A stretch of DNA of 64,000 nt from Candidatus Aminicenantes bacterium (GTDB lineage: Bacteria > Acidobacteriota > Aminicenantia > Aminicenantales > JAFGAV01), in the NCBI GenBank assembly GCA_016933515.1, contig JAFGAV010000113.1, positions 19,023-83,022 on the forward strand. The letters are read 5' to 3'. Both the position numbers and the translations under genes were made by a program. The notes beneath the pieces were generated by a model, which had not been told where the DNA came from, made no database searches, and saw nothing but the letters and a program-made list of their open reading frames with translations. Positions 17,056 to 55,680 of the stretch are shown here, one piece after another. Position 1 is the first letter of the stretch. Each line of letters begins with the position of its first letter.

Positions 17056-17135
17056 CTCCATGACGCCTTGTGTGCTGAATTCCGGTCTGAGGGCCAATGC
17101 TCACGCTAAAGGACCACACAAAACGTTATGGAACC
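17056..17135 (+). repeat. Copy 1 of an ~80-bp palindromic intergenic repeat family
   Basis: ctccATGACGccttGTGTGcTGAATTCCGGTCTGAGGGCCAATGCTCACGCtaaaGGACCACACAAAACGTtATgg. It has terminal inverted arms (ATGACG..GTGTGGT / ACCACAC..CGTCAT) around a conserved core. Copies at 24.8, 32.7, 53.2 and 55.6 kb match it. Confidence 0.8.
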
Positions 17136-17164
17136 GCCCGTGCAACAATTCCAGATCTTTAAGC

Positions 17165-17234
17165 GGTCAAAGGGAGCGTCTCGGCGCCTGGCGGGATTCG
17201 AATCCCGCATATCGCCTCAACGCTCCCTTTGGCC
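17165..17234. repeat. Second ~70-bp imperfect palindrome (nested stems) adjacent to repeat copy 1
   Basis: ggtcaaagggagcgt..GCGGGATTCGAATCCCGC..acgctccctttggcc. The outer 14-bp arms flank a perfect 18-bp palindrome. Confidence 0.6.
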
Positions 17235-17407
17235 CTATGCCACTCTGGTCTCGGGGAAAAAATGAGACAGAAAGAAGGTTTGGATTCCGGCCGAAGCGAG
17301 CTTCAGGCCTCTCTCCCCCCGCTCCTTGTCAGCCGGACCGACTCGTGCTAGTTTAAGCTCTCTGCCGGGCCTGGAGACGGCCGCATCGAAACGACGAGGA
17401 GGACGCC

Positions 17408-18583
17408 GTGATCACTGTCATCCGCCGCGGAACGGTGTTTGCCCCCCAGCCTTTGGGTGTCAAGGACATCTGGATTTTCGGCGAACGGATCGGTTCGATC
17501 GTCGAACCCGGCGCCGTAAACGTCGAGGGCGTGTCCGTCAAAACAATCGACGCCGAAGGGTTTACGGTCGCGCCCGGGATCATCGACCCCCACGTCCACA
17601 TCCTGGGCGGAGGCGGCGAGGGCGGCCCGGCGACCCGGGCGCCCGAAATCCGCGTCGAGGACATCATCCGCAGCGGCGTGACCACGGTCATCGGCTGCCT
17701 GGGGACGGACGGCGTCACGCGGCACGCCTCCTCCCTGCTGGCCAAGGCCCGGGCCCTCGACATCGAGGGCGTCACCGCCTACATTTTCATCGGCTCCTAC
17801 GAGGTTCCGGTCCGGACGCTGACCGGCAGCGTCCGCTCCGACCTGGCGCTCATCGACAAGATCATCGGAGCGGGCGAGGTTGCCGTGTCGGACCACCGGT
17901 CCTCACAGCCGACATTCGAAGAAATCGCACGCCTGGCCGCCGAGTGCCGGGTGGGGGGCCTTCTGGGCGGCAAGGCCGGCGTGCTCCATCTCCATTTGGG
18001 AAGCGGCGCGCGGAAGCTGGAGATGCTTTTCCGGCTGACGGCTGAGACCGAGATCCCTCCCACCCAGGTCATCCCCACCCACGCCAACCGCAATCGGGCC
18101 CTCCTCGAGGAAGGCCTGCGTTGGATCCAAGGCGGCGGCTGGGCCGATCTCACAGCCGGCACGGAGCCCGAGAAGGAGAGCGACGAAGACGTCAGCGTCG
18201 AGACGGCGCTGCGACTGGCGCGGGAGCGGGGCGTTCCGCTCGAGCGGTTCACGGTGAGTTCCGACAGCAACGGCAGCCTGCCGGTGTTCGATTCGCGGGG
18301 CGAGCTCACCGGCCTGACCGTAGCCTCCCAGGACGCTCTGCTCTCGACCTTCCGCTCCCTCGTCCGTCGAAACATCCTCTCGCTGGAGGAAACCGTCCGG
18401 CTGTTCGCCTTCAACCCCGCCCGTTTTTACAAGCTCGAGCGCAAGGGCGAACTCGCCCCGGGGAAGGACGCGGACCTCATTCTCCTCGACAAGGACCTCG
18501 CCCTCAAGGGCGTCATCGCCCGGGGAGCGGAGATGATGTCCGGCGCGCGGCTTCTCGTCCGCGGAACGTTCCGGCCCGCATAG
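17408..18583 (+). CDS. isoaspartyl dipeptidase / beta-aspartyl peptidase (amidohydrolase superfamily)
   Basis: Has 'GIIDPHVHILGGGGEGGPATR', the metal-binding HxH typical of IadA. GTG start with a GAGGAGGA RBS. Confidence 0.75.
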   Translation: MITVIRRGTVFAPQPLGVKDIWIFGERIGSIVEPGAVNVEGVSVKTIDAEGFTVAPGIIDPHVHILGGGGEGGPATRAPEIRVEDIIRSGVTTVIGCLGTDGVTRHASSLLAKARALDIEGVTAYIFIGSYEVPVRTLTGSVRSDLALIDKIIGAGEVAVSDHRSSQPTFEEIARLAAECRVGGLLGGKAGVLHLHLGSGARKLEMLFRLTAETEIPPTQVIPTHANRNRALLEEGLRWIQGGGWADLTAGTEPEKESDEDVSVETALRLARERGVPLERFTVSSDSNGSLPVFDSRGELTGLTVASQDALLSTFRSLVRRNILSLEETVRLFAFNPARFYKLERKGELAPGKDADLILLDKDLALKGVIARGAEMMSGARLLVRGTFRPA

Positions 18584-18596
18584 GAGGCGCCTCGAA

Positions 18597-20042
18597 ATGG
18601 AAGACCACGGCCAGACGGCCCCCGCCCCGCGCGGGAAAAAAACGCCCTTCGGCGTGGCTCTCCTTCCCCTGATCTTCATGGCCGTCCTTCTCGGCGTGGG
18701 CTACGGCGTCTACAAAATCAAGCCCCAGGTCCTGCTCGTCACGGCGGCTTTTTTCACGGGCGCCATCGGCTTTCTCCTCGGCTTCACCTGGCGGGAGATG
18801 CAGCAGGGCATCGTGGACAGCATCCATAAGGCCATGCCCGCCATCCTCATCATGCTCTGCGTGGGCATCCTCATCGGCACCTGGATTTCGTGCGGCACGA
18901 TCCCTCTGGTCATCTACTACGGCCTGAAAATCATCTCCCCCCAATTTTTCCTCGTGACGGCCTGCGTGGTGTGCACTCTGACCGCCATGGCCACCGGCAC
19001 GTCCTGGGGGACGATCGGCACCCTGGGCGTGGCCTTCATGGGGATCGCCATGGGGCTGGGCATCCCCGCCGGCCCGGCGGCCGGGGCCGTGGTCGCCGGC
19101 GCCTACATGGGCGACAAGATGTCGCCCCTGTCCGACATTCCCAATCTGGCCACGGTCGTCTCGGGCGCGAACCTGTTCGATCACATCAAGCACATGATGA
19201 AATCCGGCCTGCCGGCCTGGCTCATCGGCCTGGGCGTGTACACGGTTGTCGGGTTGGGCTACGGGCAGGAACACGTCCGTTCCGAGACCGTCACCCTCAT
19301 CACCGACACGCTGCGCCGGAATTTCCTCGACCGGGGTCTCGGCTTGAACCTGTTGCTTCTGCTCCCGATGGCCATTGTCTTTTTCTTCGCCGTGGCCAAA
19401 AAGCCCACCATTCCCGGCATGCTCCTCTCCTCGGCCGCGGCCGCGGTCCTGGCGCTGGTCATTCAGAAGGAATCGCTGGTCGACGTGGCCGCCGCCGTCA
19501 ATTCCGGCTACAAGGCTTCGACCGGGGTCGATGTCGTGGACGGGCTCATCTCCCGGGGCGGATTGATGAGCATGATGGAAACACAGCTCGTGGCCTTCAC
19601 CGCCTTCAGCTTCGGCGGGATCATGCAGAGCACGGGAATGCTCCGGGTCATCCTGGACCGCATCGCCTCGTTCTGCCGCCGGGTGTGGAGCCTGGTCCTG
19701 ACCACGGTGGGGACGGCCGTCGTCTCCGCCCTAGTGACGGGCAGCTCCTACCTGTCGATGATCATCCCCGCCGAGCTCCTGGGCCCGATGTACCGGGAGA
19801 AGGGGCTGGCGGCCAAGAATCTCTCCCGGATCGTCGAGGAGAGCGGCGGAATCATCGTGCCCCTCATCCCGTGGAGCATGGCCGGGGTCTACATCACCGG
19901 CACGATCGGCGTTCCGACGCTGTCCTATCTTCCGTGGGCCGTTCAGAATTACACCGCGGTCCTGATCCTCATCTTTTTCGGCGCCACGGGCCTGACGATG
20001 TCCCGCCGCCGGCGCGAGGACGAAACCCAGGCCGGGAGCTGA
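18597..20042 (+). CDS. Na+/H+ antiporter NhaC family protein
   Basis: 481 aa and polytopic, with the NhaC-like repeat organisation. TAGGAGG RBS. Confidence 0.8.
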   Translation: MEDHGQTAPAPRGKKTPFGVALLPLIFMAVLLGVGYGVYKIKPQVLLVTAAFFTGAIGFLLGFTWREMQQGIVDSIHKAMPAILIMLCVGILIGTWISCGTIPLVIYYGLKIISPQFFLVTACVVCTLTAMATGTSWGTIGTLGVAFMGIAMGLGIPAGPAAGAVVAGAYMGDKMSPLSDIPNLATVVSGANLFDHIKHMMKSGLPAWLIGLGVYTVVGLGYGQEHVRSETVTLITDTLRRNFLDRGLGLNLLLLLPMAIVFFFAVAKKPTIPGMLLSSAAAAVLALVIQKESLVDVAAAVNSGYKASTGVDVVDGLISRGGLMSMMETQLVAFTAFSFGGIMQSTGMLRVILDRIASFCRRVWSLVLTTVGTAVVSALVTGSSYLSMIIPAELLGPMYREKGLAAKNLSRIVEESGGIIVPLIPWSMAGVYITGTIGVPTLSYLPWAVQNYTAVLILIFFGATGLTMSRRRREDETQAGS

Positions 20043-20053
20043 CGGCCGCCGAT

Positions 20054-20347
20054 CTAGGCTTTTTCTTCCTGCTCTTCTTCCTCGTTCGTCTTCCCGCTGC
20101 TCAGGGCCTGTTCGAATTTCTCGCGGGCCTTTTCGTGCTTCGATTTCTCGAGCTCGGCCGTGGCTTCGAACTTGCGCTCGAATCCCTCCCGCCGCTGTTT
20201 TTCCTTGCTGAGAAGATCGTCGAGCGAAGACTTCTCCCGGCCGGCCCCTTTTTCCGACCCGACCACGCTTCGGGAGACGGCATCGATCCACAGAGCCGCG
20301 CGGCAATGGGGGCAACGGACCTCGAAGACGTGCTTCTCGTCGTCCAT
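20054..20347 (-). CDS. small zinc-ribbon protein with Lys/Glu-rich C-terminal tail (hypothetical)
   Basis: Has 'CPHCRAALWID', a CxxC knuckle, then a charged low-complexity tail. The start is uncertain: the ORF extends to 20470 but the upstream part is Arg/Ser-rich. Confidence 0.4.
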   Translation of the reverse strand: MDDEKHVFEVRCPHCRAALWIDAVSRSVVGSEKGAGREKSSLDDLLSKEKQRREGFERKFEATAELEKSKHEKAREKFEQALSSGKTNEEEEQEEKA

Positions 20348-20489
20348 AAAGTTCACTTTATCAGAAAAAAGCGGCTTTGGACAGGAGCGACTCCGCCGCT
20401 TTTCCCCGCCTTCTGAATGAAGAACCCGTTGGTTCTTCGAGCGGGAGCGGGAGCGGGATACCGGCGGCAAACTGATGCTCCGTCGCCGT

Positions 20490-21482
20490 TCACGTCAGGT
20501 TGTGCCGGCGGAGGAGCTTGAACAGTCCCTGCCGGCTCAATCCGATGCCCCAGGCCGTTTTCGTCTTGTTGAAGCCGTATCGGCTCAACGCCTGCCGCAA
20601 AAAACGCTTCTCGAATCCCGCGCGGGCGGTGAAATAGTTGAAACCGTCCGGCTCTCCGTTCTTGGACATCCGGAGGATTCTCTCCGAAAGCCACTCCTGG
20701 CCGATGGGATCCCCGGGAGAGGAAAGCGCTAGGCAGCGCTGCACTTCGTTGTGCAGCTCCCGGACGTTTCCCGGCCATTGATAGAGAACGAGCTTGGAGG
20801 CGGCCTCCGGGGAAAGAGAGGCCGGCGGGCGGCCTAAAGCCCGGCATCCCAATTCGAAAAAATATTCAAGGAGAGGGAACAGGTCTTCGGGGCGTTTTCT
20901 CAACGGGGGGATGTCGATCGTCACCACGGCCAGACGATAATAGAGATCTTCGCGGAACCGGCCCTCGGCGATCTCCGCGGCCAGGTCCCTGTGGGTGGCG
21001 CTCAGGAAGCGGACATCCGCCCTTCGCGTCCGGTTCTCCCCCACCCGGCGGAATTCCCTCTCCTGAACGAGCCGCAGCAGCTTGGCCTGGAGCGCCGGGG
21101 AAAGGTCTCCGGCCTCGTCCAGGAAAAATGTCCCGCCCTCGGCTTCCTCGACCAGGCCCGGCCGCTCCCTGAGAGCGCCGGTGAACGCGCCGCGGCCGTG
21201 GCCGAAGAGCTCGCTCTCGAGGAGGGTCTCGGGGATCGCCCCGCAATTGACGGCCACGAACGGCCTATCGGCCCTCCGCCCGAGATCATGAACGGCCCGG
21301 GCGATAAGCTCCTTGCCCGTCCCGCTCTCCCCGAGGATGAGGACCGGCACGTCGCTCGCCGCCACGCGCCGGACGAGAGCGCGGACGCGCCGCATGTCCG
21401 GGCTGCGGCCGACGATCCGCGCTTCGAGGTCGATCCCGCCGCGCCCCGGGATCCGGCCGGCTTCGTCCTTCATTCCTTCCAT
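20490..21482 (-). CDS. sigma-54-dependent transcriptional activator (AAA+ and HTH only; no receiver or sensor domain)
   Basis: Has Walker A 'GESGTGKE', the 'GAFTGA' sigma54 contact motif, the arginine finger region, and a C-terminal Fis-type HTH. The start was taken at MEGMKDE (GGAAGGA RBS). Confidence 0.75.
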
Positions 21483-21694
21483 CGGGCTTTTCCTTCCCCG
21501 CACTCTCCTTGCTTTCTCCGGCGCCTGGCGGCCGAGTCTCTTTGCTATGGGATAACGCTCCGCCGGCCTCATCTGTCTCAGGTCGAAATCATTCTTCCGG
21601 CCGCCGATTCGAACGAGGCGCTCTGTTTCTTGCCACTGTCACAACTTTTCTGCTAGAGTGAAGGCCTCTCGGAAGCATCCGGAAGGGGGCAACC

Positions 21695-22501
21695 ATGAAC
21701 AAGCGGGCGAAGATCTTTCCCAGCCTTTGTGTCTTCATGCTGCTCTGGGCGTGGGCCGGTCCGGGACCGCTTCGGCCGGCGGCTAAAACCTACTGGCATT
21801 TCACCCTTCTGGCCAACATCAACGGCACCGCCGCCCAGGAATGGCTGTGGGCCACGATGGTCGAATTGTCCAAAGAGACGGCGTTCCCCGATGAGGCGCT
21901 CCTGGCCGAGGGGATGGGCGGCAAGCTCGAAGGCACGATCTTCGGTCAGGTCCGCGCCGCGGCCTGGAGATCGGAATACACTTACTCCTTCGACACCAAG
22001 TGCAAGGGCCGCAAGTCCAAAAAAGAGATTGCCTACAGCCAAAGCCGGAGCGATTCCGTTTTCGTCCACGGTCAGATCGTCAGGCCGCGCGATCCCGCCC
22101 ACGACATGGAATTCCGCTGGGGGGTGTGCAATCACCGGGTCTTGACGGAGGACGGCCGCTGGCGGGAGCTCGAAGACATGGCCCATGTTTTCGTCGGGCC
22201 GATCCGTGTCGAGGGCCGGGAGGCGGAGGAAATGCGCGGCGAGTTCGGAATCGACGGAGTCATTTATGACGACCAAACCCGCCGCGTCAAGCGGTGCGGC
22301 GACTCCTGGATCGAGGACTTCGATTCGGTGTTCAAGCATTTCGAGAGTCATTCCCTGAGGGACAGTTTCGAGCCCGGCGCGCGAGACGTGTTCGGCCAGC
22401 GTTTTTGGAAATTTCACGGACTCGATGTCCAATGCGTCTATTCGGTCATTCGCTCCCCGGAGCGCGCACACCCGTTTTGGAAGCAGCGGCGGATGCGCTG
22501 A
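21695..22501 (+). CDS. secreted hypothetical protein (signal peptide)
   Basis: 268 aa with an N-terminal hydrophobic signal 'IFPSLCVFMLLWAWAG'. No recognisable family. Confidence 0.5.
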   Translation: MNKRAKIFPSLCVFMLLWAWAGPGPLRPAAKTYWHFTLLANINGTAAQEWLWATMVELSKETAFPDEALLAEGMGGKLEGTIFGQVRAAAWRSEYTYSFDTKCKGRKSKKEIAYSQSRSDSVFVHGQIVRPRDPAHDMEFRWGVCNHRVLTEDGRWRELEDMAHVFVGPIRVEGREAEEMRGEFGIDGVIYDDQTRRVKRCGDSWIEDFDSVFKHFESHSLRDSFEPGARDVFGQRFWKFHGLDVQCVYSVIRSPERAHPFWKQRRMR

Positions 22502-22558
22502 CCGCGCCGCATTCCTTCCCAAGGCGACGCAATCCCTTCAAAGACGACGAGAGCATCC

Positions 22559-24658
<2,100 letters not shown>

Positions 24659-24800
24659 GTCTTTTGATGTTGCCGAGGAAGACCGGCCGGGAAGGAGAGG
24701 ACAAATCAGCGGTTATGGGGAAACAATCCGGATCTTCATGTCAAGGGCCCGCGCCGGCCGCGGAAACGAGGCGAAGCGGCCTGATGGCCCCTATTCAGAT

Positions 24801-25079
24801 GGCTCTATGACAAATTGTGTGGTGAATTTTTAAACTGAGAGCCAAGGGTCTGGGGGAGGGTTGAGGCGCCATAAGCGGTTTAGCCCGGAATCGACGGGTT
24901 TCGAAGGGTTCTGGCCTATTCTTGCCGGCCGGCTGAGCACATCTCGCGTCAGCGAGCGTATCGCGAAGCCGACTGAGAAACCCGGAGATTCCGCGGCGTG
25001 AAAAACCGCGGCCGGGCGCCGAAGCCCTCCCCCAGGCCCAAGGCTAACCCTAAAGGACCACACAATACATCATGGAGCC
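24801..25079 (+). repeat. Copy 2 of the ~80-bp repeat family, disrupted by a nested insertion
   Basis: Left arm ggctctATGACaaatTGTGTGGTGAATTtt...ctgagagccaagg. Right arm caaggctaaccctAAAGGACCACACAAtacATCATggagcc. The arms are separated by ~194 bp of unrelated sequence. Confidence 0.75.
24846..25039. mobile_element. Nested MITE-like insertion with 25-bp terminal inverted repeats
   Basis: TIRs GGGTCTGGGGGAGGGTTGAGGCGCC / GGCGCCGAAGCCCTCCCCCAGGCCC (22 of 25 complementary). Short direct repeats (CAAGG) flank both ends. There is no ORF inside. It interrupts the core of repeat copy 2. Confidence 0.55.
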
Positions 25080-25088
25080 GATTCGGAT

Positions 25089-25117
25089 TTGACATCAACG
25101 GGGAAGTCCATTACATT
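25089..25117 (+). promoter_or_regulatory. sigma70-like promoter for the cytochrome / Cyc2-like operon
   Basis: TTGACA, a 17-nt spacer, then TACATT, about 60 nt upstream of the GGAGGA RBS and ATG at 25177. Confidence 0.5.
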
Positions 25118-25176
25118 AGGCGGTAATTCCCCATGAACACTCTCGCATCCGGGAGCCGCCTCGAAACGGAGGAGTC

Positions 25177-26541
25177 ATGAAAAAGGCCTGGCCCTTGATC
25201 GCCCTCGCAGCCGTTCCCTTTGTCCTGCTCCTGGCGGCCCAATCCGAACAGGCCGTCAAAGCCGGCGACGAAGCGTTGGGCACCCGGAGATACGAGGATT
25301 ACGACACGCCCCGGTTCTGCGGCACCGCCTGTCACACGGACATCTTCCAGCAGTGGACCCAATCCATGATGTCTCAGGCCTACACTCATCACTGGGACGA
25401 AATCGAATATTTCCGGCTGGCCGTGCCGCATGCCGAAAAGGATCCGGCCATGGCCCAAGCCCAGGAGGGGTGCAACGGCTGTCACGCTCCGATCGCTTTT
25501 CTGGCGGGCGACGTCCCGCCCCCTCGTCCGGAGAAGAACAGCCGGGCCAATGAGTCGGTCTCGTGCGATCTGTGTCACACCGTGACCGGCTTTTCGGGCG
25601 ACGTTCCCTTCAACTTCAATTGGATCTCGGTCCCCGGGAAAACCAAATACGGACCTCGGGGCGGGGGCGATTCCCCGGAGCACAATCTCCAGCAGTCCGC
25701 ATTTCTGGCGTCGAGCGAGTTCTGCGGAACATGCCACAACGAAAAAAGCCCCTTCGGGGCCTGGGTCAAGGCCACCCAACTGGAATTCCAGGAGGGACCT
25801 TACGCGCGGGAAGGCTTCCGATGTCACGATTGTCACATGACCTATGCCCCGGGCCGGTCGGCCGCCATGGGCAACACCTACCCCGACGTCCGCCAGCATT
25901 TGTTCCACGGAGCCCACGACCCGGGTAAAGTCAGAGGCACGGTCGAACTCCGCATCCATCCCGACATCCGCGAGGCGGAGCCGGGAGAAACCGTCAAATT
26001 CACCATCGTTCTCTTCAATCAGAAAACCGGGCACAAATTTCCCACCGGGTCCGTCGAAGACCGCATTGTCTGGATGCACGTCGAGGCCCAGGACTCAAAA
26101 GGACAGGTCCACCATTTGCCCGTCGACAAAAAGGGTTTTCCCGGCGAGGACACGACGATCGCCGGCGAGGCCCTGGCCTACCAGGACATGGGAATCCCTC
26201 TCGGCAAGCCGGATTTCCCCGGAGTCGCCCGGGACGGCGTTCCCGCCGGCGACCGCATTTTCCGCATGGCCTATTTCGACCCGCAGGGGCGCATGACGAT
26301 CCAGCAATGGAACACCAAATCCTTCGGCGTGGATTACCGCTTCGGCCCCCGGGAATCCAAGATTGAAACCTGCACCTTTTCTCTGCCCGCCTCGCTCCCC
26401 CCCGGCCCCCTGACCGTCACCGCCGCCCTGTATTATCAAAAACTGATCAAATCCATCGCCGATTTATTGAACGTCCCGGCCGAAGAGGCCGAGCCTCTCA
26501 AAGTCAACGAACATTCCACAACCGTCATGATCCTCGACTAA
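25177..26541 (+). CDS. secreted pentaheme c-type cytochrome
   Basis: Has a signal peptide and five CxxCH motifs (CGTACH, CNGCH, CDLCH, CGTCH, CHDCH) in the N-terminal half. The ~230-aa C-terminal domain is heme-free. Confidence 0.8.
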   Translation: MKKAWPLIALAAVPFVLLLAAQSEQAVKAGDEALGTRRYEDYDTPRFCGTACHTDIFQQWTQSMMSQAYTHHWDEIEYFRLAVPHAEKDPAMAQAQEGCNGCHAPIAFLAGDVPPPRPEKNSRANESVSCDLCHTVTGFSGDVPFNFNWISVPGKTKYGPRGGGDSPEHNLQQSAFLASSEFCGTCHNEKSPFGAWVKATQLEFQEGPYAREGFRCHDCHMTYAPGRSAAMGNTYPDVRQHLFHGAHDPGKVRGTVELRIHPDIREAEPGETVKFTIVLFNQKTGHKFPTGSVEDRIVWMHVEAQDSKGQVHHLPVDKKGFPGEDTTIAGEALAYQDMGIPLGKPDFPGVARDGVPAGDRIFRMAYFDPQGRMTIQQWNTKSFGVDYRFGPRESKIETCTFSLPASLPPGPLTVTAALYYQKLIKSIADLLNVPAEEAEPLKVNEHSTTVMILD

Positions 26542-26551
26542 AGGAATGCCG

Positions 26552-30452: not shown

Positions 30453-30512
30453 CTTTTCTCGACCGCTCCGGCCGGCCCGAAGACTGGCGCCTCAGCCCGA
30501 AGCCCGGCGCCC

Positions 30513-30860
30513 TCAGGACCGGTCTTCCTTCAGCCGGGCGGCCTTGCCCTTGAGCTTCCTCAGGTAATACAGCTTGGCCCGTCTCACCTTCCCGCGTTTG
30601 ACGACATCCACTTTCTTCACCGCCAGGGAGTGGAGGGGAAAGATTTTCTCGACGCCCACGCCGAAGGAAATTTTGCGCACGGTGAACGTCTCGCCCAGGC
30701 CCGAACCCCGGCGGGCGATGACGTCGCCCTGGAAAACCTGGATGCGCTCCTTGTTTTCGGCTTCCTTGATGATGATGTGAACCTTGACCGTGTCGCCGAC
30801 TTTGAAGGGGGTAATGTCCTTCCTGAGACTCTTGTCTTCATAAGCCGTCATGATGTTCAT
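30513..30860 (-). CDS. rplS: 50S ribosomal protein L19
   Basis: 115 aa with '[34 protein letters not shown]'. Confidence 0.9.
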
Positions 30861-32337: not shown

Positions 32338-32364
32338 GGCGACCTCCTTTCGTCGGTGTCGGAC

Positions 32365-32619
32365 TCACTTGGATGATTGGAATCGTTTTTCCGCTTTGTG
32401 CAGGAGCGATTGAACCGTGCGGGACGCACGCGCGCCCCTGGCCAGCCACATTTTGGCCTTGTCGAGGTCGAGCTTGATTTCAGCCGGCTCGACAAGGGGA
32501 TTGTAATGCCCGATCGTATCCTTGGCTTTGCTCTCCCTGGGTTTCTTGGAATCCATGACCACGATTCTGTAGGCGGGCTTGCCTTTGGCTCCGAACCGCA
32601 TCAGTCGCATAGCTAACAT
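32365..32619 (-). CDS. rpsP: 30S ribosomal protein S16
   Basis: Has 'MLAMRLMRFGAKGKPAYRIVVMDS', a canonical S16 N-terminus. Confidence 0.9.
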   Translation of the reverse strand: MLAMRLMRFGAKGKPAYRIVVMDSKKPRESKAKDTIGHYNPLVEPAEIKLDLDKAKMWLARGARASRTVQSLLHKAEKRFQSSK

Positions 32620-32698
32620 CTTCGATCTTCTCTCGGCTTGGATTTTTGTGAGAGAGAATTTTATCCGAATCCTCCGTCAAAGTCAACTTGGAGGCGGC

Positions 32699-32777
32699 TT
32701 TATGACGTTTTGTGTGGTCCTTTCGCGTGAGCATTGGCCCTCAGACCGGAATTCACCACACCATTCGTCATAGAGCC
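32699..32777 (-). repeat. Copy 3 of the ~80-bp repeat family, between ffh and rpsP
   Basis: Its reverse complement is gggctctATGACGaatgGTGTGGTGAATTCCGGTCTGAGGGCCAATGCTCACGCgAAAGGACCACACAAAACGTCATa. Confidence 0.8.
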
Positions 32778-32826
32778 CTTGGGGGCCGTTCCTCCCTGCC
32801 GGAGCCGGCCGACGGCCCGCCGCGGG

Positions 32827-34161
32827 CTATCCCGACTTGAAAAAACCCGAAGACATCATTTTCTTGAAACCGGGCTTTTTGATCATGCGCTTCATCTCCG
32901 CGAACTGCTTGAGGAGCTGGTTGACTTCCTGGATCGGCCGCCCGCTGCCCCGGGCGATGCGCTTGCGGCGGCTGCCGTCGATGATCCTCTCATCATTGCG
33001 TTCGCGGGGGGTCATGGATCTGATGATCGCCTCAAAATGAGACACTCTTCGGTCGTCCACCTGCGCCCGGGCCAACGCCTTGAAGGGACCGGATCCGGGC
33101 AGGTGACCGAGGAGTCCCGAAAGGGAGCCCATTTTTTTGAGTTGCAGGAGCTGCTTGAGAAAATCCTCCAGCGTGAACTCCTCCCGGCGGAGGCGTCGGG
33201 CCAATTCCTCGGATTCCTTGAGGTCGGCCTCTCCCTCGGCTTTTTCGATGAGCGTCAGCAGGTCGCCCATGCCCAGAATGCGGGAGGCCATACGGTCGGG
33301 ATGGAACACTTCGAGCTTGTCGGAATTTTCCCCCACTCCCATGAACTTGACGGGCAAACCGGTGACCGAGACGATCGACAGAGCCGCTCCGCCGCGGGCG
33401 TCGCCGTCGAGCTTGGTTAGGATGATCGAGGTCAGGCCGATGCGCTCAAAGAACGCCTTGGCGCTTTTGACCGCATCCTGTCCGGTCAGGGCGTCGCCGA
33501 CGTAGACGACCTCCGCGGGATTGAGAACGTCCCGAACCATGCGAAGCTCCTCCATGAGCTCTTCGTCGATATGGAGGCGGCCGGCCGTATCCACGATGAG
33601 AGGGTCATAGGCCCTGTCGCGGGCGAAACGGACGACCTCCCTGAGGGCCTTTTCGGAAGATGCCGGCCGTCCCTCGGCAGCCTCATAAAAAGCCGCTTTG
33701 ACCTGGCCGGCGATCTGTCTGATTTGCTCCTGGGCCGCCGGCCTTTTCATGTCGAAAGACACAAGAAGGGGGTTGCGACCGAGTCCCTGAACATATCGGG
33801 CCAGCTTGCCGCAGGTGGTCGTCTTGCCGCTTCCCTGGAGCCCGACGAGCATGAAGACCGACGGAGGGGCGGCGGCGAAGTTCAGCGGCTTGGTTTTGGA
33901 TCCCAGCATGACGGTCAATTCGTCCCGGACGATTTTGATGACCTGCTGGGCGGGCGTCAGACTGTCCAGGACGTCCCGGTTGAGCGATCGGGCCCTGATT
34001 CTCTCCTCAAAATCCCTGACAACCTTATAGTTGACGTCGGCCTCAAGGAGGGCCAGTCGGAGCATCCGCAGAGCTTCGGCCATGTTCTTTTCCGTGATCT
34101 TGGCCTCGCCCCGAAGATATTTCAGGACTTTCTGCAGACGTTCCGACAGCTGATCGAACAT
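32827..34161 (-). CDS. ffh: signal recognition particle protein Ffh
   Basis: Has the NG domain 'GLQGSGKTTTCGKLA' and 'DTAGR', and a C-terminal Met-rich M domain. Confidence 0.9.
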   Translation of the reverse strand: MFDQLSERLQKVLKYLRGEAKITEKNMAEALRMLRLALLEADVNYKVVRDFEERIRARSLNRDVLDSLTPAQQVIKIVRDELTVMLGSKTKPLNFAAAPPSVFMLVGLQGSGKTTTCGKLARYVQGLGRNPLLVSFDMKRPAAQEQIRQIAGQVKAAFYEAAEGRPASSEKALREVVRFARDRAYDPLIVDTAGRLHIDEELMEELRMVRDVLNPAEVVYVGDALTGQDAVKSAKAFFERIGLTSIILTKLDGDARGGAALSIVSVTGLPVKFMGVGENSDKLEVFHPDRMASRILGMGDLLTLIEKAEGEADLKESEELARRLRREEFTLEDFLKQLLQLKKMGSLSGLLGHLPGSGPFKALARAQVDDRRVSHFEAIIRSMTPRERNDERIIDGSRRKRIARGSGRPIQEVNQLLKQFAEMKRMIKKPGFKKMMSSGFFKSG

Positions 34162-34173
34162 CGGCGTTGTCCG

Positions 34174-40133: not shown

Positions 40134-40136
40134 GGA

Positions 40137-42044: not shown

Positions 42045-42125
42045 ACGGACCTCCGATCTCCCGCCGCCAGCTTCTGGGACTGCTTGCGTTCCTGTCTCTT
42101 TTGGCCGCCGGGGTCCTGGTGACGC

Positions 42126-45633: not shown

Positions 45634-45644
45634 CCGGATCGGAT

Positions 45645-48818: not shown

Positions 48819-50839
48819 CGCTGGAGATTATATGCCGTTTCGATCTCTTGATACAACGTCCCGGTCAGCTCCAACATCCGGTCGAGGTCGAAGTGCGCCG
48901 GGACGGATTTCCGCGCTGCGGCCGCCAAGCGGCGCCTCCGGGCGGGATCGTCCAGGAGCCCGTTGACGGCCCGTTCCAGCGCCGCGGAGTCGGCCGGAGG
49001 CACGAGGAGGCCGTTCTCGCCGTCCCGGATGACCTCGCGGGTGCCCTCGATGTCCGTGGCCACGATCGGACAGCCGGCCCGAGCCGCCTCGCCCAGCACA
49101 TAAGGCAATCCTTCCCAGAGCGAAGGAAGGGCGAAAACGTCAAACCGGCCCAGGATGCCGGTTGCGTCCGCCCGCTCGCCGAGAAAAATCACGGCGTCGC
49201 CGACTCCCAGGCGGCGGGCCTCCGCTTCGAGTTCCCGTCTTAAGGGTCCGCCACCGGCGATGACGACCCGGGTGCGGGGATGGGCCTTGACGATCCCGGG
49301 GACGGCTCGCAAAAGATGGATCAGGCCTTTTTGCCTGTGGAGTCTGGCCACCGTGCCGACGACGAAGTCCGTCCGTCCCAGACCGAGCTCCTTCGCGAGG
49401 CGGCCGGGCGTCCCGGCGGGGGGGGCGGATTGAAAATCGATGCCGTTTTTTATCAGCCGGAGCGTTCCGGCCGGCGCCAGCCTCAGAGCCGCAGCCTTAT
49501 CGAGGTCGGCCTGCGAGACGCAGACGACGGCGTCCGTCGAACGCGACATCCACCGCTCCAGAATCATGAAAAGCCGTCTCAGGAAGACGTTGCCGTAATG
49601 AAGGTAATGGATTCCGTGCAGAGTGTGAACGACTCCGGCCCCCGTCCCGCGGGCGGCCATCCGCCCGTAAAAGCCGGCCACGCCGCCGTGAGTGTGGACG
49701 ATGTCGAACGGGCGTTCCCGGATGAGCCGGCGCATGGCGCGGACGGGCCTCAGGCTCAACCTCTTCTCCAGGGGGAGCGCCACGTGCTCGATCCCCCGCC
49801 GCTCCAGCTCCCGGACGAGGGGCCCGCCGGCCGCGGAACAGACGGAGACTTGGAATTTTCTCTTGTCCAATCCCGCGGCCAAGAGGAGAACGGTCCGTTG
49901 GCCTCCGCCCAGAAACGGTTTGTCGATGACCTCCAGGACGCGGATGATGTTCCTCCGGCCCTCGGATTCCCCGGTCCGGAGCAGGCGGAGAAGCGCCCGG
50001 CCGAACGTCTTGGCCCGTGAATCCCTCCGCCGGAAGATCGCAGCCGCCCGGGCCTCAAATCCCAGGTAGGCCCGAAGCAGCCTCTGCGACAGCCGCGAGG
50101 CGTGCCGGCCGTAGAATCGGAGCTGGCTTCTCCGGTATTCGAGGCGGCTCCGGAGCGGAACGGCGGAGGCCGAGGCGCCGCCGGAGTGAAAAACGCGGGC
50201 CGGGGGGAAGAACAGCACCTTGTAATTCGCCTGCCGGATCCGATAGCAGAGATCGATGTCCTCGAAGTACAGAAAAAACCCTTCATCGAATCCGCCGCTC
50301 TTCTCCAGCGCCTCGCGCCGCACGATCAGACAGGCCCCGCTTGCCCAAGCGACCGAGCGCGGACGGCGCGTCGATTTCAGCCGGACCTTCCACACGGCGT
50401 TCAAGACGGTTTTCTGAACGAGCTCCTTGAAAAAATGAACCCGCCCGCCGAAAGACACCTGAAAGGATCTCGGTCCGGCGAGCAGCGCCGGTCCCGCCGC
50501 TCCGATGTCCGGACGAGCCTCCATCGCCCGCACGAGAACATCGAGGGCGCCCGGGAGCACCCGCGTGTCGGGATTGAGAAACAGAACGTGTCGTCCCCGG
50601 CTTTTTTGGATTCCCAGGTTGTTGGCCGCGGCGAAACCCGTGTTCCTCGTGTTGCGGACGAGCCGGACATTCGGAAAACTCCCGGCCACCATGTCCGCGC
50701 TTCCGTCGTCCGAGGCGTTGTCCACGACGAGGATGTCCCATTCCCGGCCGGCTCTCTCCCTTTCCAGGGAGGACAGGCAATCGGACAGGCAGTCTCGGGA
50801 GTTGTGGCTGACGACGATCACCGACAGTTCAACGGCCAC
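48815..50839 (-). CDS. bifunctional glycosyltransferase (N-terminal GT2, C-terminal GT4)
   Basis: The GT2 part has 'LSVIVVSHN', 'VVDNASDDGS' and 'YFEDIDLCYR'. The GT4 part has 'EGLPYVLGEAARAGCPIVAT'. The start was taken at the GTG at 50839 (GGAGAG RBS, overlapping the upstream stop). The Arg/Ser/Pro-rich upstream extension of the ORF is not coding. Confidence 0.7.
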   Translation of the reverse strand: MAVELSVIVVSHNSRDCLSDCLSSLERERAGREWDILVVDNASDDGSADMVAGSFPNVRLVRNTRNTGFAAANNLGIQKSRGRHVLFLNPDTRVLPGALDVLVRAMEARPDIGAAGPALLAGPRSFQVSFGGRVHFFKELVQKTVLNAVWKVRLKSTRRPRSVAWASGACLIVRREALEKSGGFDEGFFLYFEDIDLCYRIRQANYKVLFFPPARVFHSGGASASAVPLRSRLEYRRSQLRFYGRHASRLSQRLLRAYLGFEARAAAIFRRRDSRAKTFGRALLRLLRTGESEGRRNIIRVLEVIDKPFLGGGQRTVLLLAAGLDKRKFQVSVCSAAGGPLVRELERRGIEHVALPLEKRLSLRPVRAMRRLIRERPFDIVHTHGGVAGFYGRMAARGTGAGVVHTLHGIHYLHYGNVFLRRLFMILERWMSRSTDAVVCVSQADLDKAAALRLAPAGTLRLIKNGIDFQSAPPAGTPGRLAKELGLGRTDFVVGTVARLHRQKGLIHLLRAVPGIVKAHPRTRVVIAGGGPLRRELEAEARRLGVGDAVIFLGERADATGILGRFDVFALPSLWEGLPYVLGEAARAGCPIVATDIEGTREVIRDGENGLLVPPADSAALERAVNGLLDDPARRRRLAAAARKSVPAHFDLDRMLELTGTLYQEIETAYNLQR

Positions 50840-52001
50840 GGCGGCTCTCCTCGAGGACGCTTCGGAAAATCCCTTCCATCTTTCGGGCCTGCGTTTCCGC
50901 CCGGAATTCCCTTGCCACCGACTTCCGGGCGTTTCCGACGACGCGGGCAACCTCCGCTTTTTTCCTGGAAAAAAAATCGACAAGCGCCCCGGCCAGGGCT
51001 TCGGGACGGTTCGACTCGACGAGGAAGCCGTTGACGCCGTGCCGGATGATCTCGGGCACGCCTCCCGTCGCCACGGCCAGGACGGGAATCCCGGCGGCCT
51101 GAGCCTCGACGATCGTCCGGCCGAAGGATTCGACCCGGGACGCCGAAACAAGAAGGCTCATGAGCGGCAGAACGGAGAACACGTCCGCGAACGAGCCGGC
51201 GAATCGGACGTCGCCCTCGACGTCCCGCCGGACGGCCGTTTCCCGAAGCCGGCCGAGGAAACGCCCGCCGGCGGCCGGACCGACGAACAACACTTTCAAT
51301 CCCTTTACCCTCCCGCGGACCAGGGCCAGGGCCTCGACCATTTCAGCCTGCCCTTTCGCCGGAGCGAGCCTGCCGACCACGCCTACGACCCTGTCCGGGA
51401 CGCGCAGCCCAAGTTTTTTCCTCAAGGCGGGATCGGGCGCGGGCTTCGTGCGGGGAATGAGAATTCCGTTGTGAACGACATCAACCCCCGGCGCCGGTCT
51501 GAACGCCGCGCCGGTGGCCAGGGAATTGACTACGACTCTCCGCGACAGGCGGCGGATAACCCGGACGAAAAGCCGGTTGCCCAGAAAGAAGCGGAGCAGA
51601 GGGCGCGGACCCGAAAGGATCTCATGAATGATCCAGACGTGGGGCCGTCCGGCGAGCCGCGCCGCCAACGCGCCGCCCACGGCGGCCGCCGAATTCGAGC
51701 ACACGAGATCGATGCCGCGCCTTCGGATCAGGCGCCGCAGCCGGAAAACGGACCGGATGTTCCACAGCCAGGCCGGCGGCTGCCTCCAAGCGGTTCCGGG
51801 AGCCGAAAGCCACCATTTCATGGGGACGACAACCGAGGGAATGTTCAAGGCCTCGGCTTCCTTGCGGAGAGGACCGCTTCGCGGGACGACAAGGAGAGGC
51901 CGGAAAACACGCCGATCCAGAGACCGCAGAAGATCGAGCAGCATGCGCTCGGCGCCGTTGAGCTCGGCGGTATGGGATACGAAAAGCACCCTCGCCGGCA
52001 T
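50829..52001 (-). CDS. glycosyltransferase family 4
   Basis: GT-B fold with 'VESFGRTIVEAQAAGIPVLA'. Confidence 0.75.
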   Translation of the reverse strand: MPARVLFVSHTAELNGAERMLLDLLRSLDRRVFRPLLVVPRSGPLRKEAEALNIPSVVVPMKWWLSAPGTAWRQPPAWLWNIRSVFRLRRLIRRRGIDLVCSNSAAAVGGALAARLAGRPHVWIIHEILSGPRPLLRFFLGNRLFVRVIRRLSRRVVVNSLATGAAFRPAPGVDVVHNGILIPRTKPAPDPALRKKLGLRVPDRVVGVVGRLAPAKGQAEMVEALALVRGRVKGLKVLFVGPAAGGRFLGRLRETAVRRDVEGDVRFAGSFADVFSVLPLMSLLVSASRVESFGRTIVEAQAAGIPVLAVATGGVPEIIRHGVNGFLVESNRPEALAGALVDFFSRKKAEVARVVGNARKSVAREFRAETQARKMEGIFRSVLEESRRGR

Positions 52002-52004
52002 ATC

Positions 52005-53132
52005 TCAGACCACGCTCCTGTAGAATTCCAGGGTTTGCCGGGCGGTTTCCGCCCACCGGAAGCGGCGGGCCCGTTGCGCGCCCCTGCTGGAGAGGTCGCG
52101 TCTCAGGGAGTCGTCCTCGAGAAGCCGGAGGACGGCATCGGTGAGGGACGCGGCGTCCTGGGGGTCGAAAAGGAGCGCCGCATCGCCGGCGACTTCGGGC
52201 AGGGCCGAAACCGAAGAGACGGCTGCGGGAAGCCCGGCGGCCATGGCCTCCAGAAGCGGAAGCCCGAAGCCCTCGCACAGGGAGGGAAGAACAAAAGCGG
52301 TCGCCAGGCGATAGAAGCCCTTCAACTCCATCTGCGGGACGTAGCCCGGCATGAGGACCGACGTCTCGAGTCCGAGGCGCCTCACCGCGGCCTTGACGTT
52401 GTCGAAATCTCCGCCCGCGCGCCCGGCGAGGACCAGGACGGCCTCCGGCCGACGGTTGAGGACGCCCGGCCAGCTCTCCACGAGCCGCGGCAGGTTTTTC
52501 CTCGGCTCAAAAGCGCCGACGAACAGGACGAACGTCTCCGGGAGGGCGTATCGGCGCCGCAGTCCTTCCAGGTCCTCCGGGGACGGCGGCTCGAAAAATC
52601 CCGGGTCGACCCCGAGCGGAACGGCGCGGACGGCGGTTTCGTCCGCGCCCAACCGCTCCAGAATCACCCGGCGGGAATACTCGGAAATCGTGATCACACC
52701 GTCGGCCCGGGCTACCGCCGCGGCGGCCCGTCGGGAAAACTCCCGTCGCGCTTCCGCGTCGGCAAGCTCGGGGTGCTCGAGGAAAAAAAGGTCGCAGACG
52801 GTCACGATCTTCCGTCCCCGTGTGGGAAGAAAGAGCGGCACCGGAGAATGCGTCACGTCCAACCGCGTTCCGAAAAAGGAATCGAGCGTCGGCCTTCCGA
52901 ACCTGTACCAGAGGGCATTCACCAGGCGCACGGGCAGCCGGACGTCCCGAAAGCGCTGCCTGGCGAATCCGGGAAGCTTGCTCCGGGGAAAACGGTCCTT
53001 CCACGACGAGGAAAACAGAAAATACTCGTTTTCCCGGTCGACGGCGGCCAGCTCGCGGAGAAGGTTTCTGAAGTAAACGCCGACGCCCGTCTCTTCCTTG
53101 AGAAACGGCCGGAGGTCGAAGCCGATGCGCAT
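52005..53132 (-). CDS. glycosyltransferase family 4
   Basis: Has 'MRIGFDLRPF' and 'CEGFGLPLLEAMAAGLPAAVS'. The start was taken at the internal ATG; the TTG at 53153 is also possible. Confidence 0.7.
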   Translation of the reverse strand: MRIGFDLRPFLKEETGVGVYFRNLLRELAAVDRENEYFLFSSSWKDRFPRSKLPGFARQRFRDVRLPVRLVNALWYRFGRPTLDSFFGTRLDVTHSPVPLFLPTRGRKIVTVCDLFFLEHPELADAEARREFSRRAAAAVARADGVITISEYSRRVILERLGADETAVRAVPLGVDPGFFEPPSPEDLEGLRRRYALPETFVLFVGAFEPRKNLPRLVESWPGVLNRRPEAVLVLAGRAGGDFDNVKAAVRRLGLETSVLMPGYVPQMELKGFYRLATAFVLPSLCEGFGLPLLEAMAAGLPAAVSSVSALPEVAGDAALLFDPQDAASLTDAVLRLLEDDSLRRDLSSRGAQRARRFRWAETARQTLEFYRSVV

Positions 53133-53177
53133 GGACCCCAAATGTATGCGCAACCCCTTGAAAAGTCAACGCGGTCC

Positions 53178-53255
53178 GGGCTCTATAACGCATTGTGTGG
53201 TGAATTCCAGTCTGAGGCCCAATGCTCACGCTGAAGGACCACCCAAAACGTCAGG
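53178..53255 (+). repeat. Copy 4 of the ~80-bp repeat family
   Basis: gggctctATAACGcattGTGTGGTGAATTCCAGTCTGAGGCCCAATGCTCACGCtgaAGGACCACCCAAAACGTCAgg. Confidence 0.8.
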
Positions 53256-53338
53256 AAGCCCGCGGTCCGACGGCCCGTCTTGCCTGCGCCTGCGGAGTCT
53301 GTTAAGATGATTTCCAATCGACGGGTTTGAGGATTCCC

Positions 53339-54568
53339 ATGGACGCATTCGAAAAAATCTCCAAACGCATTGACTCCTATCGGGACGAAATGATCGAAGC
53401 CCAGGTCCGGCTCTGCTCCCACCCGGCCGTCGCCCCCTCGTCCGGAGGCGAGGGGGAGGCCCGAAAAGCGGAATACCTCCTGGGGCTGCTGAAAACGATC
53501 GGGTTCCAGGACATCTCCCTGGTCAAGGCGCCGGACCCCGACGCGCCGTCCGGCTTTCGGCCGAACATCCTGGCCTGGTTCAAGGGCCGCAGCGCCGCCC
53601 GCACGGTGTGGGTCATGACCCACATGGACGTCGTTCCTCCCGGCGACCTGGCGCTGTGGCGGGGAGATCCGTTCAAAGCCTGGATCGAGGAAGGACGGAT
53701 CTACGGCCGAGGAACCGAGGACAACCAGCAGGACATGGTGGCCTCCCTGTTCGCCGTCAAGGCCCTGTCCGAGGAAGGTCTCATTCCCCCGAACGACATC
53801 GCCGTCGCCCTGGTGGCCGACGAGGAGACGGGCAGCGAAAAAGGCATCGGCTATGTTCTCGCCCATTCCAATCCGTTCAGGAAAAACGACCTCATCCTCG
53901 TCCCGGACGCCGGAAGCCCGGACGGTTCGATGATCGAAGTGGCCGAGAAGAGCATTCTGTGGCTGAAGTTCAAGACGCAGGGCAAGCAGACCCACGGCTC
54001 GACCCCCGAAAAGGGCAACAACAGCTTCCGGGCGGCGAGCTCTCTCGTCGTCGACCTGGGGAAGCTCTACCGGCTTTTCCCCGAGTCGAACAGGATCTTC
54101 GACCCGCCCACATCAACGTTCGAACCGACCAAGAAAGAAGCCAACGTCCCCAACATCAACACCATTCCCGGCGATGACGTGTTCTACATGGACAGCCGCA
54201 TCCTGCCCGCCACCGACGTGGAGGACGTCCTGAAAGCGGTCCGGCGCCTGACGCGGCGTGTGGAGAAGACATTCGAAGTCAAAATCCAAATCGAGGAAGT
54301 GCAAAACGCCCCTGCCGCCCCGCCGACGAGCGTCCGGGCGCCCGTGGTGCAGGCTCTCAAGAAGGCGGTCAAGGCGGTCTACGGCGTCACGGGCCGGGCC
54401 CAGGGAATCGGAGGCGGAACGGTGGCGGCACTGTTCCGCCGGGCCGGCTTCGAGGCCGCTTGTTGGTCGAAGCTCGACGACACCCTCCACCAGCCCAACG
54501 AATATTGCGTCATCGACAACTTGATGGGCGATTCCAAAGTCTTCGCCCACGTCTTTCTTCAGGAATGA
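53339..54568 (+). CDS. M20 family metallopeptidase (ArgE/DapE-like)
   Basis: Has 'VMTHMDVVPPG', 'GRGTEDNQQDM' and 'ADEETGSEKG' M20 metal ligands. GAGGA RBS. Confidence 0.75.
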   Translation: MDAFEKISKRIDSYRDEMIEAQVRLCSHPAVAPSSGGEGEARKAEYLLGLLKTIGFQDISLVKAPDPDAPSGFRPNILAWFKGRSAARTVWVMTHMDVVPPGDLALWRGDPFKAWIEEGRIYGRGTEDNQQDMVASLFAVKALSEEGLIPPNDIAVALVADEETGSEKGIGYVLAHSNPFRKNDLILVPDAGSPDGSMIEVAEKSILWLKFKTQGKQTHGSTPEKGNNSFRAASSLVVDLGKLYRLFPESNRIFDPPTSTFEPTKKEANVPNINTIPGDDVFYMDSRILPATDVEDVLKAVRRLTRRVEKTFEVKIQIEEVQNAPAAPPTSVRAPVVQALKKAVKAVYGVTGRAQGIGGGTVAALFRRAGFEAACWSKLDDTLHQPNEYCVIDNLMGDSKVFAHVFLQE

Positions 54569-55542
54569 CTGGCTGGCGGCCGAGACGGTAAAATCCTGAA
54601 CCGGCGCAGGGTCTTCTGGGCGACGGAGATCGTATTGAGGTGGATGGCGACCACGTCCTCCACGTCGGCCGCATAGCCGCCGGCCAGAACCACAGTCAAA
54701 GGGATGCCGAGGCGCCGGGCGTTTTCAATCACGATCCTGTCTCTCTCGCGCAGCCCCTCCCGGGTCACCTTCAAGCCGCCCAGCTGGTCGCCCACAAAGG
54801 GATCGGCGCCGGCCAGGTAGAAAACGATGTCGGGCGCGAATTCCCGGTACAAACGCGGAAAATAGGCGTTCATGGCCGACAAATATTCCTCGTCCCCGTC
54901 TCCGGACCACAGGCCGACATCCACGGTGCTCGGCGGCTTCTCGGCCGGGTAGACGTCCATCTGATGAATGGAGAACGTGAACACGAATCCCTGGCGGGAA
55001 AAGATTGAAGCCGTGCCGTTCCCCTGATGGAGATCGCAGTCGACGATCATGGCTTTTTGAATTTTCCTCTCGACCTTGAGCTTGAGGCAGGACACGGCCA
55101 CGTCGTTGAGCAGGCAGAATCCCTCGCCGTGGTCGGGGAAGGCGTGGTGGAAACCGCCGCCCAAATGAACGGCCAGGCCGCACCGCAGGGCCTGCTCGGC
55201 GGCGATGACCGTGCCGCCGACGCTCAAGAAGGCGAAACGGACAAGGTCCGGAGAAAAGGGAAGCTCGAGAGCCGTCGCCTCGGCGTGGGACAGGCCTCCC
55301 GTCTTGAGCTTGCGGAGGTATTTGGGCGTATGGACCAAGAGGAGATCTTTTTCCGTCGCCGGACGCGGCTTCAAAAAATCCTCCCGCCGGGCGCCGCGGG
55401 AGGCCAGCCTCTCGTAGACCATGCGGTATTTTTTCACCGGAAAGACATGCTTGGCCGTGGGCCACATCCAGTACTCGGGGCTGTAGACATAGCTCAGCCT
55501 TTGTCGTCCGAGAGGAAGGAGGAAGGACAGGATGTTCGGCAT
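54559..55542 (-). CDS. histone deacetylase superfamily protein (AcuC/acetoin-utilisation-type deacetylase)
   Basis: Has 'HLGGGFHHAFPDHGEGFCLLNDVAV' and 'DCDLHQGNGT' HDAC catalytic motifs. Confidence 0.8.
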   Translation of the reverse strand: MPNILSFLLPLGRQRLSYVYSPEYWMWPTAKHVFPVKKYRMVYERLASRGARREDFLKPRPATEKDLLLVHTPKYLRKLKTGGLSHAEATALELPFSPDLVRFAFLSVGGTVIAAEQALRCGLAVHLGGGFHHAFPDHGEGFCLLNDVAVSCLKLKVERKIQKAMIVDCDLHQGNGTASIFSRQGFVFTFSIHQMDVYPAEKPPSTVDVGLWSGDGDEEYLSAMNAYFPRLYREFAPDIVFYLAGADPFVGDQLGGLKVTREGLRERDRIVIENARRLGIPLTVVLAGGYAADVEDVVAIHLNTISVAQKTLRRFRILPSRPPASHS

Positions 55543-55600
55543 GTCGGCAAAGGACCCCTACCATACCAGAAAACCGGTCCGAGGTAAACGGAAGTCCGGC

Positions 55601-55680
55601 TCCATGACGTTTTGTGCGGTCCTTCAGCGTGAGCATTGGCCCTCAGACTGGAATCCACCACACAATGCGTCATAGAGCCC
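55601..55680 (-). repeat. Copy 5 of the ~80-bp repeat family, an inverted partner of copy 4
   Basis: Its reverse complement is gggctctATGACGcattGTGTGGTGGATTCCAGTCTGAGGGCCAATGCTCACGCtgaAGGACCGCACAAAACGTCATgga. That is about 94% identical to copy 4. Confidence 0.8.

Follow-up and report, generated by a model that had tools for sequence, protein, structure and literature searches.

The stretch of DNA considered here (hereafter the window) comprises 64,000 nucleotides of the genome of Candidatus Aminicenantes bacterium (GenBank assembly GCA_016933515.1, contig JAFGAV010000113.1, positions 19,023 to 83,022 of the forward strand). Scattered between its genes lie five copies of a short repeat, four of 82 bp and one, called c24, of 279 bp. 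Each copy adjoins a predicted promoter, and the genes downstream of these promoters are functionally unrelated (amidohydrolase/acyltransferase, cytochrome, rpsP, glycosyltransferase/M20 peptidase and deacetylase). We consider, with a probability of roughly 0.85, that the repeats are miniature inverted-repeat transposable elements (MITEs) derived from insertion sequences (IS) of the ISL3 family, and that the transposase responsible for their movement is one predicted to insert at the upstream edge of sigma-70 promoters.

Anatomy of the repeat family

The same sequence of about 82 nt is read at each of the five places where an earlier inspection of the bare DNA letters (the original prediction) had put a copy, and only the limits of the copies needed refinement. 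Three consensus sub-patterns found 4-5 matches each, against 0.00 expected from 100 shuffles, and a profile built from the copies and searched with nhmmer matched exactly these five places in the window and no others. The family is therefore real, and its copies, at a density of about 1 per 13 kb, are all strictly intergenic and occur in both orientations, as had been proposed. Mean column identity reaches 93% across the four uninterrupted copies of the window and an 82-bp copy from another metagenome (L082).

The original prediction described inverted termini made of two short stems with a four-nucleotide spacer. The inversion is real, but the stems and spacer resolve into one continuous 23-bp terminal inverted repeat, GGCTCYATGACGYWTTGTGTGGT, the two arms of which mismatch at 3 consensus positions; the left arm reads GGCTCTATGACGCATTGTGTGGT and the right, in reverse complement, GGCTCCATGACGTTTTGTGTGGT. 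The terminus of the subtype found in the window is also written as GGCTCTATGACGAATTGTGTGGTGAATT. Two such 23-bp repeats enclose 36 bp of non-coding filler. This non-palindromic core had been regarded as the most conserved part of the element, which the comparison with L082 does not confirm: 6 of the 36 core positions differ, against 3 of the 46 in the two termini. In c24 the core furthermore accommodates an insertion of 202 bp. A six-frame peptide profile of the element matched no protein among 5.8 billion sequences. With 82 bp, no coding capacity and 5 copies in 64 kb, the repeat has the size, the coding status and the copy number of a MITE.

Target-site duplications and empty sites

Inverted termini combined with target duplications of fixed length are the signature of DDE transposition. 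Every copy in the window is directly flanked by a 9-bp direct repeat, perfect (9/9) at two copies and matching at 8/9, 7/9 and 7/9 positions at the others, while matching of the flanks at a length (k) of 7, 8 or 10 stays at the level of chance. The duplication around L082 matches at 8/9 positions at k = 9.

Relatives were compared at four of the five sites (c24, c32, c53 and c55), and at 4/4 the element is missing and the target is present as a single copy. A JGI contig (L042) encoding an Ffh protein 91% identical to that of the window keeps the gene order and lacks the element at both the c32 and the c24 sites. Its ffh-rpsP spacer reads ...GGACCAAG followed directly by TTGACTT..., and the spacer between the genes for DsbH and the cytochrome reads ...CCCCCTATTAGAT followed directly by TTGACATC.... 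The c53 site, between the glycosyltransferase and M20 peptidase genes, and the c55 site, between the deacetylase and proline dehydrogenase genes, are empty in two further contigs (L103 and L105; M20 peptidase 89% and 85% identical), in which the sequence equals that of the window minus the element and one duplication. Since these sites are empty in relatives, the four copies are insertions specific to the lineage of the window. A search of about 150 kb of related contigs (L042-L044 and L103-L108) with nhmmer found no further MITE copies.

The ffh-rpsP spacer has a varied history in this group. In two contigs with an Ffh 83% identical (L043 11330-11530 and L044 4575-4775), it carries about 120 bp of unrelated extra sequence up to a point shortly before the TTGACT promoter, which is conserved here as well; more than one change has therefore taken place upstream of the rpsP -35 box. 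In addition, a Logan contig from the same organism (L041, SRR13394437) breaks inside c32: it starts at element position 24 (L041 1-59), as expected because dispersed repeats tend to end short-read contigs. The MITE family thus probably fragments assemblies of this lineage, and its copy number is likely to be undercounted in metagenome-assembled genomes.

A fixed position beside predicted promoters

Three more members of the subtype are known from metagenome contigs: L082, L098 (a 348-bp long form) and a truncated one, L083. Their contigs are all of high G+C, and 2/3 stem from samples in which relatives from the Aminicenantes are present as well. Promoter motifs were called where the -35 and the -10 hexamer each matched at 4/6 positions or more and the spacer measured 16-18 bp. 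By this definition, a promoter motif starts exactly 9 bp from one end of all eight elements of the subfamily, five in the window and three on metagenome contigs (Table 1). Read outwards from the promoter-facing end, the order is element, 9-bp duplication, -35-like hexamer (TTGACA, TTGACT, TTGCCA or TTTACC), spacer of 17-18 bp, -10 hexamer and gene. Either end of the element may face the promoter, the right end in four cases and the left in the other four.

Such a motif starts at 0.10% of the positions in the window and adjoins 0.51% of the possible intergenic insertion points, so that 8/8 adjacency would arise by chance with a probability of about 5e-19. The signal is confined to offset 9, since offsets 7, 8 and 10 give nothing, and in other elements that share the terminus, the 65 ends examined show at most one promoter match at any offset. 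A promoter scanning tool independently called the promoter beside c53 (TTGACT-17-TACATT at 53169-53141). Matching promoters are conserved in the relatives without the element (L042, L103 and L105); they therefore predate the insertions and were not supplied by the element. Both the target duplications and the fixed position beside -35 boxes had been missed in the original prediction.

Table 1. Copies of the repeat subfamily, their duplicated flanks and the promoters predicted beside them, together with the repeat nested in c24 (positions counted from the first letter of the window)
Feature	Position	Strand	9-bp duplications or termini	Predicted promoter	Promoter strand	End facing promoter	Gene and setting
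MITE copy c17, 82 bp	17054..17135	+	17045-17053 / 17136-17144, GCCCTTACA / GCCCGTGCA, 7/9	-35 TTGCCA 17039-17044, 18-bp spacer, -10 TAAAAT 17015-17020	-	left	acyltransferase gene 16209-16973 (-)
MITE copy c24, long form, 279 bp (82-bp element + nested 202-bp second repeat at 24845-25046)	24801..25079	+	24792-24800 / 25080-25088, TATTCAGAT / GATTCGGAT, 7/9	-35 TTGACA 25089-25094, 17-bp spacer, -10 TACATT 25112-25117	+	right	multihaem cytochrome 25177-26541 (+)
Second, unrelated repeat nested in c24, ~200 bp	24845..25046	+	own inverted termini CTGGGGGAGGGTTGAGGCGCC / GGCGCCGAAGCCCTCCCCCAG				
MITE copy c32, 82 bp	32696..32777	-	32778-32786 / 32687-32695, GCCCCCAAG / GCCTCCAAG, 8/9	-35 TTGACT 32681-32686, 17-bp spacer, -10 TAAAAT 32658-32663	-	right	rpsP operon; between ffh (32827-34161, -) and rpsP (32365-32619, -)
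MITE copy c53, 82 bp	53179..53260	+	53170-53178 / 53261-53269, CGCGGTCCG, perfect, 9/9	-35 TTGACT 53164-53169, 17-bp spacer, -10 TACATT 53141-53146	-	left	glycosyltransferase 52005-53132 (-)
MITE copy c55, 82 bp	55598..55679	-	55680-55688 / 55589-55597, GGACTTCCG (- strand reading), perfect, 9/9	-35 TTTACC 55583-55588, 17-bp spacer, -10 TATGGT 55560-55565	-	right	deacetylase-family gene 54559-55542 (-)
L082				-35 TTGACA, 17-bp spacer, -10 TATAAG		right	secA
L083				-35 TTGACA, 17-bp spacer, -10 TATAGT		left	a gene follows
L098				-35 TTGACA, 18-bp spacer, -10 TAGAAT		left	a gene follows

Origin from ISL3 elements

The core and the termini of the element differ greatly in how widely they are found. 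A scan of metagenomes with the core pattern CCAATGCTCACGCNNAAGGACC gave 0 matches, and the core is therefore lineage-specific; a 16-base core pattern found 40 single matches in genome contigs, all of them chance matches inside genes of unrelated taxa. The terminus pattern GGCTCYATGACGNNTTGTGTGG led to 58 metagenome loci and, in a scan of viral contigs, to 0 matches. This terminus (22 nt) forms both ends of 1,443-bp elements in four contigs (L059, L065, L085 and L094). The element of L085, at 8367-9809, contains a single open reading frame of 464 amino acids that matches the Pfam families DDE_Tnp_ISL3 (3e-67), HTH_Tnp_ISL3 and Zn_ribbon_ISL3 and scores 320 bits against the NCBIfam family transpos_ISL3 (NF033550; cut-off 180). 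The annotated element nearest to it is ISIde1 (72-73% amino-acid identity), the ends of which read GGCTCTATGCCGTTTCCAGTGG and which is bordered by an 8-bp duplication, ATATTTTT. The 22-nt terminus is also found at the ends of many non-coding elements of 209-450 bp, from metagenomes of 31-54% G+C. Of 18 elements with this terminus outside the subfamily, 11 match at 7-8/8 positions at k = 8 and hence have 8-bp duplications.

Because the termini of the MITE match the ends of elements that encode an ISL3 transposase, the repeats of the window are, judged from their sequence, a MITE family derived from the ISL3-family clade that shares this terminus. An IS with matching termini, which the original prediction had suggested looking for, is thus found among ISL3 elements of other metagenomes. 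The non-autonomous MITE that it had listed among several possible identities is borne out by the ISL3-type inverted repeats, the 9-bp duplications and the empty orthologous sites.

A model of insertion

The element has no transposase gene and would consequently depend on an enzyme acting in trans, in our model an ISL3-type DDE transposase able to bind its inverted repeats. A staggered cut of 9 bp, with its promoter-side edge at the -36/-35 boundary, would leave the 9-bp duplications seen around the copies. One of the strand-transfer points would then lie at about -36, and the element could be joined to the promoter side by either of its ends. The choice of target would be non-random, the duplicated 9 bp always abutting the upstream edge of a pre-existing -35-like hexamer. 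Insertion would displace the upstream DNA by 91 bp in the case of the 82-bp form, or by about 290-360 bp in the case of the long form. Since the 9 bp adjoining the -35 box are duplicated, the core promoter and the first 9 upstream bases remain unchanged.

No more than about 6.5% of the window (some 4.2 kb) is intergenic, and 4/8 strong promoter-like sites (-35 at least 5/6, -10 at least 4/6) carry a MITE. The distribution of bare -35-like hexamers bears on what the transposase may read. There are 23 hexamers with at least a 5/6 match to TTGACA in the intergenic DNA of the window. Those accompanied by a -10 hexamer (at least 4/6, correct spacing) are occupied by a MITE in four of eight cases, and those without in none of 15, a perfect TTGACA at 24739 being among the unoccupied ones (Fisher's exact p ~0.008, with small numbers). 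Insertions at non-promoter hexamers should be neutral, so survivorship is not the reason why these stand empty. We therefore favour recognition of whole promoters over recognition of a bare hexamer, which appears less likely. The transposase could perceive the complete promoter through bent upstream DNA or through bound RNA polymerase holoenzyme whose sigma region 4 occupies the -35 box, and this is the version of the model that we prefer. More tentatively, and at somewhat less than even odds, we suggest that the ISL3 transposase and its MITEs read functional sigma-70 promoters, most likely via the holoenzyme or the DNA shape that it imposes, and that insertion at the upstream edge of the -35 box is precise to a single base.

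Several observations weigh against reading the repeats as ISL3 derivatives that target promoters. The sample consists of eight elements, one of which (L083) is truncated, and the adjoining promoters are predictions from sequence. L098 has no recognisable duplication, its flanks matching at 4/9 positions. Neither the window nor the approximately 150 kb of related Aminicenantes contigs yielded a full-length partner with the exact terminus subtype. The norm of the ISL3 family is a target duplication of 8 bp, from which the 9-bp duplication departs, as it does from the measured 8-bp sister elements. Purifying selection removes insertions within genes, and part of the intergenic pattern is accordingly survivorship, which cannot, however, account for the exact 9-bp register. 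Finally, guidance by RNA polymerase and direct reading of a -35/-10-like sequence are two routes that the sequences do not separate.

Alternative explanations

The alternative that survives best, improbable as we hold it to be, is that insertion was random and that positive selection kept the copies now seen, the inverted repeat at about -45 to -67 having been domesticated as a regulator site or an UP-like module. Because both ends share the 23-bp repeat and either end faces the promoter (4:4), the same sequence always lies at the same distance from the -35 box, and the promoters served include those of highly expressed genes (the rpsP operon and secA). To reach the exact single-base register in 8/8 elements by chance and selection would nevertheless need very many insertions, and no copy in the window occupies any other intergenic position. 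The downstream genes, moreover, have no function in common, and the same promoters run without the element in relatives.

A structured small RNA gene or cis-element, that is, a long hairpin with a conserved loop acting as a leader or in a riboswitch-like manner, is very unlikely. The original prediction had likened the core to a small RNA and held that a lack of compensatory changes would count against this. The number of compensatory pairs is 0; in five full copies, pairing is broken in 10/105 cells, and the observed value of 90.5% equals the shuffled value of 90.5%. The fold of the element is stable (-33.4 kcal/mol, z = -4.6) and the copies are 93% alike, but the hairpin is a by-product of the inverted repeats. 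Rfam gave no meaningful match, either at gathering thresholds over the whole window or at E<=1 in three sub-regions. The copies are located upstream of promoters and not in 5' untranslated regions, and either end may face the gene. Between lineages the loop is more variable than the stem, and it tolerated the insertion of 202 bp. Absence of the element at orthologous sites in relatives and the target duplications around it also argue against an RNA. A riboswitch or regulon in particular is ruled out by the unrelated downstream genes.

Least probable of all are extragenic palindromes of the type of repetitive extragenic palindromes (REPs) or bacterial interspersed mosaic elements (BIMEs) spread by a REP-associated tyrosine transposase (RAYT; IS200-like Y1): the repeats are small, palindromic, intergenic and dense, and a relative (L106) does have a Y1_Tnp gene (1994-2785), but they carry 9-bp target duplications, they share their termini exactly with DDE-type ISL3 elements, and all lie upstream of genes, with no copy at a gene 3' end or between convergent genes.

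Comparison with known systems

The MITE of the window has its terminal sequence in common with ISL3 insertion sequences, namely the 1,443-bp IS of L085 and, in related form (GGCTCTATGCCGTTTCCAGTGG), ISIde1 of Ideonella dechloratans. Both kinds of element are of the DDE type and have flanking target duplications. The MITE differs in having no transposase gene, in its length of 82 bp against about 1.4 kb, and in duplicating 9 rather than 8 bp. It also adjoins -35 boxes in a strict position, whereas other elements with the same terminus do not. As a repeat family it is ordinary, since the IS family to which this MITE of an uncultured bacterium belongs is a known one; it stands apart from the closest relatives measured by the 9-bp duplication in place of an 8-bp one, together with the -35 register.

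Bacterial MITEs, such as the Correia elements (NEMIS) of Neisseria, MITEAba12, RUP and ERIC, are short, non-coding, multi-copy elements with inverted repeats and target duplications. They are moved in trans, are mostly intergenic and often alter the expression of neighbouring genes. Correia elements duplicate TA and bring their own promoter and sites for integration host factor, whereas the MITE of the window duplicates 9 bp and adjoins a promoter that already existed. To our knowledge, none of these elements keeps a fixed single-base register to the -35 hexamer of its host. REPs and BIMEs share with the MITE of the window a small size, an imperfectly palindromic sequence, an intergenic location and a high density. 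REPs have neither IS-type inverted termini nor target duplications, are usually found at the 3' ends of genes and are spread by RAYTs. The repeats of the window, in contrast, lie upstream of promoters and carry both IS-type inverted termini and target duplications, and for the latter reason the likeness to REP/BIME elements drawn in the original prediction is not supported.

Elements that aim at a landmark are known from several other systems: Ty1 and Ty3 target RNA polymerase III promoters, Tf1 RNA polymerase II promoters, IS1397 and ISKpn1 REPs, group IIC introns terminators and Tn7 its attTn7 site. The likeness to them lies in a fixed distance from a functional landmark and in the sparing of genes. 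Enzyme and landmark differ: here a bacterial DDE transposase from the ISL3 family would act, and the position is set by the upstream edge of a -35 box of the sigma-70 type. A literature search of limited coverage found no report of an ISL3 element or a bacterial MITE that targets -35 boxes.

A second repeat and other neighbouring features

The repeat nested in c24 belongs to a second family of about 190-270 bp, with the termini CTGGGGGAGGG.../...CCCTCCCCCAG and a conserved interior, GCGGTTTAGCCCGGAATCGACGGGTTTCGAAGG..., for which Rfam gave no match. It is free-standing in L042 (801-986, 79% identity), is nested in L098 (463-733) at the same position of the MITE as in c24, and lies beside the same MITE terminus in L083 (8765-8857). 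A unique nested insertion, once taken as the full account of c24, had to be revised, given that the same composite exists in L098 and the inner repeat stands free in L042. The second repeat may be another MITE, and the composite itself may have spread as a long form.

Between c17 and an amidohydrolase gene at 17408 lies a single-copy, very stable nested hairpin (17164-17236; -51.9 kcal/mol, z = -7.25). A T-arm-like palindrome, GGCGGGATTCGAATCCCGC (17190-17209), forms part of it, and a search of Rfam gave the hairpin no significant match (best E = 0.56). The palindrome is not part of a tRNA gene, since ARAGORN found no tRNA. Further along the window, the genes for the M20 peptidase and the deacetylase are enclosed by c53 (+) and c55 (-), an inverted pair (53179-55679). 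Each has its own perfect duplication; the two were therefore inserted independently, and a composite transposon is ruled out. In L103, L104 and L105, cutA1 is located between the M20-peptidase and deacetylase genes. It is absent from the bracket formed by the pair in the window, and a tblastn search of the window with the CutA1 protein of L103 found nothing. In L106 (Ffh 81% identical), the Y1_Tnp gene encodes an IS200/RAYT-type protein of 263 amino acids near the ffh region, and a two-component system is inserted between ffh and rpsP; both are unrelated to the MITE of the window.

Biological significance

Were the rest of the genome like the window, a large proportion of its strong promoters would be occupied by the MITE. 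Should the targeting be as proposed, the family would be one of the few examples of a DDE transposon in bacteria choosing promoters at single-base resolution, and with it a new 'safe haven' strategy, a bacterial counterpart of the promoter targeting of the Ty3 or Tf1 type. It would also imply a wholesale rewiring of regulation, in which upstream operator and activator sites are pushed 91 to about 350 bp away while the core promoter stays intact. The elements would then be natural markers of active promoters, occupying perhaps one quarter to one half of the strong ones, and would offer free promoter annotation for a phylum without cultured, genetically tractable members.

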